Shown here: positions 42,501-45,500 of the stretch, piece by piece
Layout of the letters: each line of letters starts with the position of its first letter
Position numbering within the stretch: position 1 is the first letter of the stretch
Source of the DNA: Ophelia neglecta
Taxonomy: Eukaryota
Assembly: GCA_965285935.1 (NCBI GenBank)
Contig: OZ260665.1
Location: 33,728,001-33,792,000, forward strand
Length of the DNA stretch: 64,000 nucleotides
Reading direction: 5' to 3'
Notes under the pieces: model-generated
The model's database searches: none
The model's input: only the letters and a program-made list of their open reading frames with translations
What the model was told of the DNA's origin: nothing
Translations under genes and position numbers: made by a program

Positions 42501-45500
42501 ATACCAAGAAGTGGCAAAAGAAAATATTAAAAAGGCTCAAGAAAAAATGAAGCTATATTATGATAAAAATGCAAAACAACCACAATACGAGCTAGGCGAT
42601 CACGTCTACGTGTATAGCCCAAAACTTAAGAAAAGCTTGTCCAAGAAATTGCTGCATTTATGGCACGGACCCATGTATTTAGTGGAAAAATTAACTCCAG
42701 TTACCTTCAAAGTTCGCAATGCTTCGAATAAGCTGATCAAGGGCCCAGTGCATGTGAACAGAATGAAACCTTTTATTCACAGGGAGGATAGACCCATCGG
42801 CATGTTGCCTGATGCTCCCGAGGGTGACCTGGAGGACGACGAAATTCCCCCGGATAGCTTTGAACCCGACTCTGACATAAGTGACCAAGACAAAGACAAA
42901 ATTGACGAAGACATTCATTTTGTTGACCGCCTGGTTGCTAAACGAACTAAGCAAGGACGTATTGAATATAAAGTAAAATGGAAAGGTTTTTCTTCCAGAC
43001 ATGACACATGGGAGCCGAGGGGAAACATCATGGACGATGCTCTAATAGCCGAGTTCGAAAGGCGGACTAAGCCCAAGAAAAGGGGCAGGCCTCCCAAAAT
43101 GCCAAAATAAAAATATTGTCTTCTATTAATATTCAGGGCTATGACGGCACTCGGACTGACCACCATCATCTCCCTCCTAGGGCTCCCATGCCTATCGGCA
43201 AGCACCCCCCGAGAGGTAATACGGCCGAATTGGGGCGTCGCCTTCGCCAGAATCGGAGGAATAAGTAATGGGGCGTCAGAGTGGGTCCACACCTTTGCAG
43301 TGCCCTGGATCAAACCAAAATATGAAGCAATACCAGACATCTCCTGCAGGACCACATCCGGCCCACGACAAAAAGAGTTCTGTAAAGGCTTCTCCAGCCT
43401 GGTTACAGACCTAAACTCCCAGAGGGGGCAGGTAGTAAATACTGTAAATAATAACATAAATCTCATTAAGCGGATGATTCCGGCCAGGGTTACGAGTACG
43501 CGCAATAGACGTGGTCTTTTTGATTTTGTTGGCCAGGTGGCCCAGAGTTTGTTTGGTATTGCTCGAGATGAGGATGTTTCGACTATTTCCTCACACGTTG
43601 AAGCAGTAGAAAAATTAACTAACGCAACCTCCGAGCGAGTCACTCAAATGGGCCGACAGTTAAGTTCTTTCATTAATGCGACAAACAGTCGCATGTCAAA
43701 TGCTATCGCAGGCATACAGCAAAACCACAAGCTTTATTTGCAATTAACAGACTCATTGAACAAAGCTATGATCAATATGGAGGATACCCAGTATTTTTGG
43801 CTTGCCCTAACTTCATTTTTAAGAGCCGAAATTATGGCCACTGGCACTTTCAATGCCGTGGAAAGAGAGTCACATAATTGGGTTGAAGGGGCACAGACCT
43901 TACTCGAAGGGTTTCTGCCCATGCAGCTAGTCACTCCGGACCAGCTGTCTGAGTGTTTAAATGACGTAGAAATGCGTTTAACGCAAGTGTACCCATTGTT
44001 CCGTCTAGCACATAAGGACATTGGATATTACTACCAAAATAGAGACATTTTGTTCACTCAAAGCGATAAATACCTGTACATTTCAGTCAAAATTCCGATC
44101 ACGTCATCATCGTCTTACTTTGATATATATAGTATTGTTAGCCTACCTATCCCTTTGAATGCCACAACGACCAACACAACCAAAATTGTTGGTCTTCCAG
44201 CGTATTATGGAGTCTCAAGGGACAGTGAATTTTACACGGAAATCAGCCGTGATATATATTCATCGTGTCACGGCACAGACGTAAAGACATGCTCTAGCGT
44301 AATGAGCATGAAAAGTAGGCGATTTCCGTCCTGTGTCTCTGCCTTATATTTCGATCAATCGGATAGTGTTTTAGAACTTTGTGACATAAGATATGAGACC
44401 GCCTCGCTGTTTGAGGGGGCCATCAATCTCGGCAACAGTTTCTATTTGGCAAGCGGTTCTGATAAAAACTGGAATCAAATTTGTGCTAATTCACCACCTT
44501 CTCCCATCCGCGGATGCACATTCTGTTTAATTAAATTGCCTTGTGGGTGCGGAATTGACACGGATCATTTTAAAATCCCACCCAAGATAAGTGGCTGTCA
44601 AAGCAGCACCGCCAATAAACAGCCAACGTATCTCCACCCTGTTAATTTACCTGTTCTGAGGAAACTCTTTCCATCGGACAAGTATGCCCATGTTACAGGA
44701 ACCCAAAGCTTCCAACAAGAAAGCATTATACGCCTTCCCGACCTTAAAGTTGTTGACCAAGAATGGTCAAAGGTCGCTGCTAATGACAATAAGTTTAAAT
44801 TATCTTTTGCCAAAATAGCCGATAATGTTAAAACGTCTGATTTCCTTTATAAATCACAAGCAGACTTTATCAAAGCAGAAGCTGCTAAGAACCAACACAC
44901 AAGAGCGGATTGGCTTTCTTCGAACAAAGCCAGACTTTCATTCACGATCATCCCCGCAATCCTAAGCATAGTAAGTCTCGCCATGTCTGTTTATATATTC
45001 ATGACACAGCGAAAAACAATGGCATTCTTACCGTTAGCACAGCATGTCCCAACGGCTAAAGCATGGCTTATAATTTCAAATGAGTCAATAACTGCTCATG
45101 ACCGTAAACCCGATGATGCGTCAGTCATCGGCTCCTCCGTACAATCCTTTCCATACAAGGACGTAATGGTTGACACCGTTGTGATACTAGTCATTGTTTT
45201 AATCATTGCAAACTTTGTAATGAGCATTGCACGATTAATATATGTTAAAATAATCCGAAAACGCTTACATGATTCAATCGGCTGTTATTCGAGCCTTTGG
45301 CTAGAGTTATCCGATCATCACCAGTGTGTTTCTTTCAAAATACTAAAAGTGCCTGCCTGCCCCTCCAACTTGACCACCGACTCTCTCACACCACCAACGT
45401 CGTTGACATTCGACGAAGGTTGTTTGACAGGCAGACTCAATTTAGAATGGACAACCTCCAATGTGGTTCGTAAAACAGACGGCAGGACGTATGTATTACC

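Follow-up and report, generated by a model that had tools for sequence, protein, structure and literature searches.

A chromodomain and a candidate AT-hook tail at the integrase terminus of an env-bearing gypsy family with interior chromosomal loci in Ophelia neglecta

Described chromodomain-bearing elements and the architecture of the Ophelia element

The closest described systems in layout are the 'ancient' errantiviruses of Cnidaria, Mollusca and Annelida (Chary and Hayashi, eLife 2026, PMC13524379), which were reported as an env-bearing clade, all with a chromodomain, outside the known chromoviruses; by our own count, 28 of the 139 elements in the chromodomain sheet of the supplement (elife-108449-supp4.xlsx) are marked as having one. 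Among chromoviruses, the chromodomain of the group I element MAGGY binds H3K9me2/3 and has been proposed to steer insertion to heterochromatin, and group II chromodomains have lost cage residue 1 and usually residue 3 (PMC3350952). A Gypsy element with a C-terminal chromodomain has been described as widespread in animals, and CBX/CDY-type chromodomains were found fused to hAT transposons in a sponge (Grau-Bove et al., bioRxiv 10.1101/2021.11.30.470311). In host proteins, CBX2 combines a chromodomain with an AT-hook and CBX4/6/7/8 carry AT-hook-like motifs (PMC2784810, PMC3013012); an RGRP adjoining the chromodomain has been given as characteristic of CBX2 (PMC2784810), and the hydrophobic clasp corresponds to Val10/Leu49 in Cbx7 (PMC3013012). 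The terms 'AT-hook' and 'polycomb' each occur 0 times in the main text of PMC13524379, whose consulted sections do not treat cage residues, clasp residues or chromosomal position. The consulted text of Grau-Bove et al. (10.1101/2021.11.30.470311) likewise has 0 occurrences of 'AT-hook' and gives the Gypsy chromodomain no CBX orthogroup. In the literature within reach of our search, from which most subscription journals are absent, no integrase chromodomain followed by an AT-hook tail was found. Chromodomain-bearing errantiviruses are already published (PMC13524379); new here are the fixed-spacing GRP hook of one subclade and the all-interior loci of the family that carries it.

We analyzed a 64,000-nt window of the Ophelia neglecta genome, which contains a young, recently inserted, intact and env-carrying Ty3/gypsy element (Table 1). 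Its identical 692-nt LTRs are bounded by a 4-bp target duplication, and the features of Metaviridae are present: LTRs, primer-binding site and polypurine tract, gag, the order protease, RT, RNase H and integrase, and a third ORF with an F-type env. Among solved structures, Ty3 is closest to its RT/RNase H. The gag frame matched PF03732 and PF19259 above and zf-CCHC below cut-off, and env matched PF12259 Baculo_F with 45 bits (cut-off 24.1). No tRNA matching the putative primer-binding site was found, a 15-nt exact search matching just 6 element copies. The pol frame encodes, in order, protease, a weak dUTPase-like stretch, RT, RNase H, integrase, chromodomain and AT-hook tail. The dUTPase-like match between protease and RT (39646-39879) scored 19.5 bits against a cut-off of 22, and no such match appeared in the three sister families described below at E<=0.001.

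Like the errantiviruses of PMC13524379, the window element has LTR-gag-pol-env organization, several near-identical copies, a chromodomain C-terminal to the integrase and an RT apart from chromovirus-like RTs, and its F-type env is one of the two env classes reported there; this likeness is one of layout (chromodomain C-terminal to integrase, plus env). It shares with group I chromoviruses such as MAGGY an integrase-terminal chromodomain of classical type (PMC3350952). It differs from chromoviruses in having env and a 4-bp duplication (5 bp in two Selaginella elements, PMC3350952) and in its integrase, in which SH3_Tf2-1 (PF24626) gave no match at E<=1. The RT stands apart from three chromovirus-like metagenome elements, each side supported at 100/99, in a tree where these proxies take the place of any named chromovirus. 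SH3_Tf2-1 was present in two of the three proxies (52.5 and 66.2 bits).

Table 1. Features of the window element and its integrase terminus (positions within the window)
Feature	Positions	Strand	Basis
5' target-site duplication ATGT, 4 bp	36893..36896	+	identical 4 bases directly after 3' LTR
5' LTR, 692 nt, TG...CA	36897..37588	+	100% match to 3' LTR
Putative primer-binding site, begins TGG	37591..37607	+	position after 5' LTR
gag frame, 411 aa between stops, with capsid and zinc knuckle	37568..38803	+	Pfam
pol frame, 1486 aa, in -1 frame with respect to gag	38650..43110	+	frame reading, Pfam
Integrase C-terminal beta domain, Integrase_p58_C-like, below cut-off	42682..42771	+	Pfam; three strands in predicted model
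Acidic linker	42820..42909	+	sequence; low confidence in AlphaFold model
Chromodomain, 51 aa	42910..43062	+	Pfam, alignment, AlphaFold model
Basic C-terminal tail and stop codon; AT-hook core RGRP at 43081-43092	43063..43110	+	
env frame, 866 aa between stops with first ATG at 43141, encoding F-type fusion protein	43111..45711	+	PF12259
Polypurine tract	46806..46815	+	
3' LTR, 692 nt	46820..47511	+	
3' target-site duplication ATGT	47512..47515	+	

Tandem repeats were also observed in the window, namely a nested 28/97/125-bp array at 3482-5451, a 26-bp repeat in the 3' untranslated part of the element (45791-45946) and a 25-bp repeat downstream of it (47788-47967). A 169-aa frame at 31787-32296 resembles what we take to be a fragment of a ULP/SENP-type cysteine protease.

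Affinities of the chromodomain

The preliminary description of this locus reported that the integrase ends, after an acidic linker, in a chromodomain followed by RGRP, and this was confirmed. Translation of the + strand from position 42913, at the pol terminus, gives the quoted peptide without a difference, and the last 96 pol residues matched Pfam Chromo PF00385 with 63.4 bits (cut-off 25.1, E 1.9e-17). An AlphaFold model of the last 156 residues comprises the integrase C-terminal beta domain, the acidic linker, the chromodomain (pLDDT 95-98) and an unstructured tail. The modeled chromodomain superposes at 0.6-0.9 A on CBX8, CBX6, CBX4, CBX1 and fly Pc, all equally well, and thus fits Pc-class chromodomains no better than those of the HP1 class. 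A search of the ESM Atlas returned generic Chromo clusters only, with a best score of 0.89.

For the comparisons by sequence, two protein searches yielded 155 proteins, 57 of them with both an integrase C-terminal domain and a chromodomain; after a coverage filter, 60 element chromodomains from these relatives and from families of the same genome were analyzed. Vertebrate CBX4/7/8 make up most of the Polycomb (Pc) set, in which CBX2 is missing and the host Pc is the one invertebrate member. The cage residues named in the preliminary description, His (42916-42918), Trp (42979-42981) and Phe (42988-42990), are present. Its reading of Trp and Phe as a retained CBX state did not hold, as the third cage residue is Trp in 40/40 Pc and 0/59 element domains, and Phe is the HP1 and element state. 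The first residue is His in 8 young copies of the family and Tyr in the 2 most diverged of 10; the His codon is one base from the Tyr codon of the oldest copies. No His was found at this position in the 59 other element domains, 54 of which have a full aromatic cage. Judging from these copies, Tyr at the first cage position was recently replaced by His, and the young His-cage subfamily would be expected to bind its ligand more weakly. Unlike group II chromodomains (PMC3350952), those of this family are altered at cage residue 1 only, and in young copies only.

The same description proposed that the chromodomain and hook were captured as one cassette from a host Polycomb gene. We located the host Pc gene by a Pc-box search (one match among 4 candidates) at L032-L033 (C8, 20.13-20.15 Mb), and found four HP1 paralogues in the host (L049-L052), all on contig C1; the chromodomain exons of Pc and the HP1 genes were read. 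Host Pc (38% identity to the query chromodomain) is no nearer than host HP1 (37-41%) or the sister elements (35-49% overall; 44-49% for families B and C, 37% for D); the best identity of the query is 48% within the set of 40 Pc domains and 50% among other elements. At 14 Pc-diagnostic columns the query matches 1, compared with a median of 3 (up to 7) in elements and 1 in other chromodomains. After the chromodomain, host Pc has KRGPKP at W+27, counted from the Trp of the WEP motif, rather than RGRP at W+25. The RGPK motif occurs in 121/122 Pc proteins, at W+31 or, in the host, at W+27, with GRP within 30 residues in none of them, and an RGPK-type hook was found in 0/60 elements. Overall likeness to Pc-class structures and a module order as in CBX2 (PMC2784810) would speak for a recent capture of the host Pc/CBX N-terminal exons as a chromodomain and AT-hook cassette. 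Set against these are the low identity to a host Pc that is itself close to vertebrate CBX, a hook that differs in motif and spacing, and a chromodomain present throughout the element clade. Identity, diagnostic columns and hook type largely refute a recent host Pc capture, which we consider highly improbable; a recent capture from CBX is on these sequences unlikely. The last exon of host Pc contains one RGRP and several GPGRP hook-like motifs.

In profile comparisons the query scored best with elements. It scored 73.5 bits with a held-out element profile, built without the query's subclade, 70.2 with other chromodomains, 61.5 with HP1 and 60.3 with Pc. Against solved structures, the single-sequence query gave a tie between HP1-alpha (55.4) and CBX2/6 (54.6 and 53.7), as did a clade profile (84.4 bits for HP1-alpha vs 84.2 for CBX2); by sequence and fold together, the best solved-structure matches are a tie between HP1-alpha and CBX2/6/8. 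In a chromodomain tree of 98 rows and 51 columns (50/60 element domains, 8/40 Pc, 10 HP1 and 30/305 others), Pc formed a 100/98 clade with the query outside it; this clade fell among 38 element domains with weak support (60/82). The query branched in another part of the tree, next to an unrelated domain. AU tests on the 51 columns did not reject a forced grouping of Pc with the query (p=0.305) or with the trio of hook-bearing elements (p=0.211).

Functional traits of the Pc class were found in the element clade. The hydrophobic clasp is present in 37/59 elements, 40/40 Pc, 0/10 HP1 and 9/305 other chromodomains, and the median chromodomain charge is +1 in elements, +3 in Pc and -5.5 in HP1. 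The query lacks the HP1 traits, having an Ile/Met clasp instead of acidic polar fingers and a net charge of +2. The window element thus resembles Polycomb/CBX proteins in the order of chromodomain and hook, the clasp and a basic surface (PMC2784810, PMC3013012), and is unlike them in the missing cage Trp, the single diagnostic column, the lack of a Pc box and the fusion to an integrase. Its hook lies at W+25, compared with W+27 in host Pc and W+31 in CBX4/6/7/8, in a set from which CBX2 is absent. On these sequence traits, the query domain likely functions like a Pc-class reader, yet it fails two features of Pc membership.

These traits invite the alternative that the ancestor of the clade captured a Pc-class chromodomain long ago, with or without a hook and independently of the chromoviruses, the hook being kept or rebuilt in one sublineage. 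Clasp, charge and the diagnostic columns of the elements are in its favor, as are the weak placement of Pc among element domains, a host Pc hook just 2 residues further out, the AU tests and an RT apart from chromovirus-like RTs. Against it are the Pc cage Trp and the RGPK-type hook, both absent from the elements examined, a tree support of 60/82 only, the element profile that ranks HP1-alpha level with CBX2, and the many independent losses required of a hook kept from the start. We regard such an ancient capture as unlikely. The chromodomain was likely inherited within the element family rather than taken from the host Polycomb gene.

The AT-hook tail and its distribution among relatives

An AT-hook consists of an R-G-R-P core with flanking basic residues and binds AT-rich DNA in its minor groove. 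The pol frame of the window element ends in KKRGRPPKMPK-stop, which contains this core with basic flanks; Pfam AT_hook gave no match in the window element. The RGRP is the sole [RKP]GRP in its pol. Just 6 occurrences of [RKP]GRP were counted in 48,777 element residues, and 3 of them lie in tails that follow a chromodomain; the tail motif is therefore not a chance match. Tails of >=12 residues are present in 38/60 elements, and [RKP]GRP follows the chromodomain in 3/60, namely the query, P0006 (KGRP) and P0007 (RGRP); P0145, with TGRP at another spacing, was not counted. L084, a decayed copy in the Ophelia genome, ends in RRGRL at the same spacing, and all four have Gly at W+25. The hook is thus conserved in the closest relatives, P0006 and P0007. 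The chromodomains of the hook-bearing relatives are only 35-36% identical to that of the query, and the hook stands at the same spacing despite this divergence; it is therefore conserved, but locally. The three sister families and about 55 relatives have a chromodomain and no hook, and many relatives end in basic tails without GRP.

A search of the Ophelia genome with the pol tail, in which 150 of 291 candidates were scored, recovered the family of the window element (family A) and sister families B, C and D. Family A has at least 10 copies (75-100% identity), of which 4 have the complete 1486-aa frame; RGRP is found in the tails of 8/10 copies and RGKP in 1, and 1 copy is cut before the tail. 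Families B, C and D, with pol frames of 1422, 1480 and 1519 aa, have the nearest RTs to family A in the genome (53-61% identity). All three end pol in a chromodomain followed by env, which is 44-47% identical to that of the window element; their frames stop 1-4 residues past the chromodomain and have no hook. The integrase of L084 is nearer to family A (46%) than to B-D (30-36%).

In a 39-row RT/RNase H tree, the four families group as B,(A,(C,D)) at 99/98 within an 18-row clade at 100/99, in which a chromodomain was detected in 13 rows and a faint trace in 2 more. P0006 and P0007 have no RT and are outside this tree. They are the closest relatives of the query by integrase (85% and 80% over the C-terminal domain), and in a 37-row integrase tree the query, P0006, P0007 and P0025 group in a subclade of 4 rows (94/87) next to B, C and D. 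The chromodomain is clade-wide and older than the hook on both trees, against the capture of the two as one cassette, and the simplest order on these trees would be chromodomain first and hook later. A caveat to the hook explanation is that this subclade is not starred (94/87) and that its member P0025 has a degenerate chromodomain and no hook.

When longer proteins were searched for homologs of the 76-aa tail, 20 candidates came up, none of which was scored, and a pattern search of viral_contigs gave 7 matches and no relative. A search of metagenome_contigs returned 20 loci, which served as outgroups, with no close relative and no GRP tail among the chromodomains shown.

Several other tails and families were observed. 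Five proteins (P0094, P0133, P0141, P0145 and P0151) form a separate group of element chromodomains, whose conserved tail motif is another one, of the PVxITG[RK] type. A PKKKGKAP stretch after the integrase zinc finger resembles the tail; an origin of the hook by internal duplication of this stretch was considered, and the DNA match is short and proves nothing. Three copies (L001, L002 and L007, on C1, C2 and C12) have lost the same large segment immediately past the env start and represent a non-env subfamily with the same pol tail. Four further gypsy families in the same RT clade (L245 and L252-L254) have apparently decayed chromodomains with basic tails, with a faint chromodomain profile match in 2/4.

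Chromosomal position of the hook-bearing and hook-less families

The genome offers a natural comparison among four related families, all recently active and alike in integrase-chromodomain layout; one of the four has the AT-hook and a changed cage, and the chromosomal distributions are clearly different. Loci were taken from LTR searches on the seven large contigs (small contigs left out), with loci <200 kb apart merged; all 23 candidates were scored for family A, and 40 each of 49, 88 and 65 for B, C and D. The contrast in position is post hoc, having been spotted after seeing the data, and is based on one hook-bearing family. In the distal 35% of the half-chromosome lay 0/14 family A loci, against 15/17 for B, 12/23 for C and 14/22 for D among the scored candidates (41/62 pooled). 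A rank test of A vs B/C/D gave p 3.6e-5 pooled and <0.002 for each family, and the 7 young A loci alone (coding matches) differed from B-D with p 6e-5. Older Tyr-cage copies and LTR remnants of family A were also interior (0/8 distal). Interior loci make up 21/62 among the hook-less B/C/D as well, and 95 loci of other gypsy families were intermediate, with 44 distal.

The preliminary description had suggested integration into AT-rich chromatin, and family A does lie in AT-richer surroundings, with a GC content of 0.371 in the interiors vs 0.405 distally (40 windows of 10 kb; rho -0.40, p 0.011). Pooled 100-bp flanks had an AT content of 0.663 for family A vs 0.602 (p 0.006; 16 vs 85 flanks), a contrast that counts two flanks per insertion and is mostly regional background; with one 100-bp flank per insertion, p was 0.018 upstream (6 vs 45) and 0.12 downstream (10 vs 40). 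Over their own local background, the AT enrichment of the flanks was not significant (+0.039, p 0.16). The interior AT-rich position fits a regional steering by the AT-hook, with the hook inseparable from other differences of the family.

We favor, with moderate confidence, the explanation that the chromodomain is an old trait of the clade and that one sublineage later gained a short AT-hook which would tether the integration complex to AT-rich DNA. The tail may help explain why family A is found in AT-richer interiors and its hook-less sisters mostly near chromosome ends. By analogy with MAGGY (PMC3350952), the chromodomain would hold the integration complex at methylated H3 tails; the clasp suggests little selectivity between K9 and K27. 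The tail, going by its motif, would grip AT-rich minor grooves, and the likeness of the pair to CBX2 would be convergent.

The tail could, however, serve solely as a nuclear-localization signal. A possible although rather less likely explanation is that it is a basic segment for nuclear localization or non-specific DNA binding, and that the interior position results from another cause, such as the altered chromodomain, when the family was active, local hopping or post-insertion selection. The many relatives with basic tails without GRP, the lack of significant local AT enrichment, the clustering of some family A loci (two at C8 33.8-34.1 Mb) and the RGKP in one older family A copy are all compatible with a basic segment of this kind. 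It does not readily account for a GRP spacing kept across relatives whose chromodomains are only 35% identical, or for the interior position of the older Tyr-cage copies and LTR remnants. A further reading holds that an env-bearing virus clade anciently took a Pc-class chromodomain, independently of the chromoviruses, and that one sublineage rebuilt a CBX2-like pair and moved to AT-rich interiors, perhaps H3K27me3 chromatin, with its hook-less sisters distal; we consider this distinctly doubtful.

If the later-gained hook of the favored explanation causes the shift in position, then a 15-residue tail suffices to retarget an integrase at the scale of chromosomes, and a CBX2-like reader pair arose by convergence; if not, the window element is one more member of the recently described errantivirus group. 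The chromatin choice of retroelements has been tested in few cases, none of them for an animal env-bearing gypsy element in the literature surveyed.

Weak chromodomain matches in chromosome interiors look like amplified family C remnants and were left out of the targeting evidence. These matches, with L080-L082, amount to dozens of decayed family-C-like remnants on C5, C7, C8 and C12, clustered in interiors. Identical stops were found in 3/3 sampled remnants, which were probably amplified within a larger repeat.
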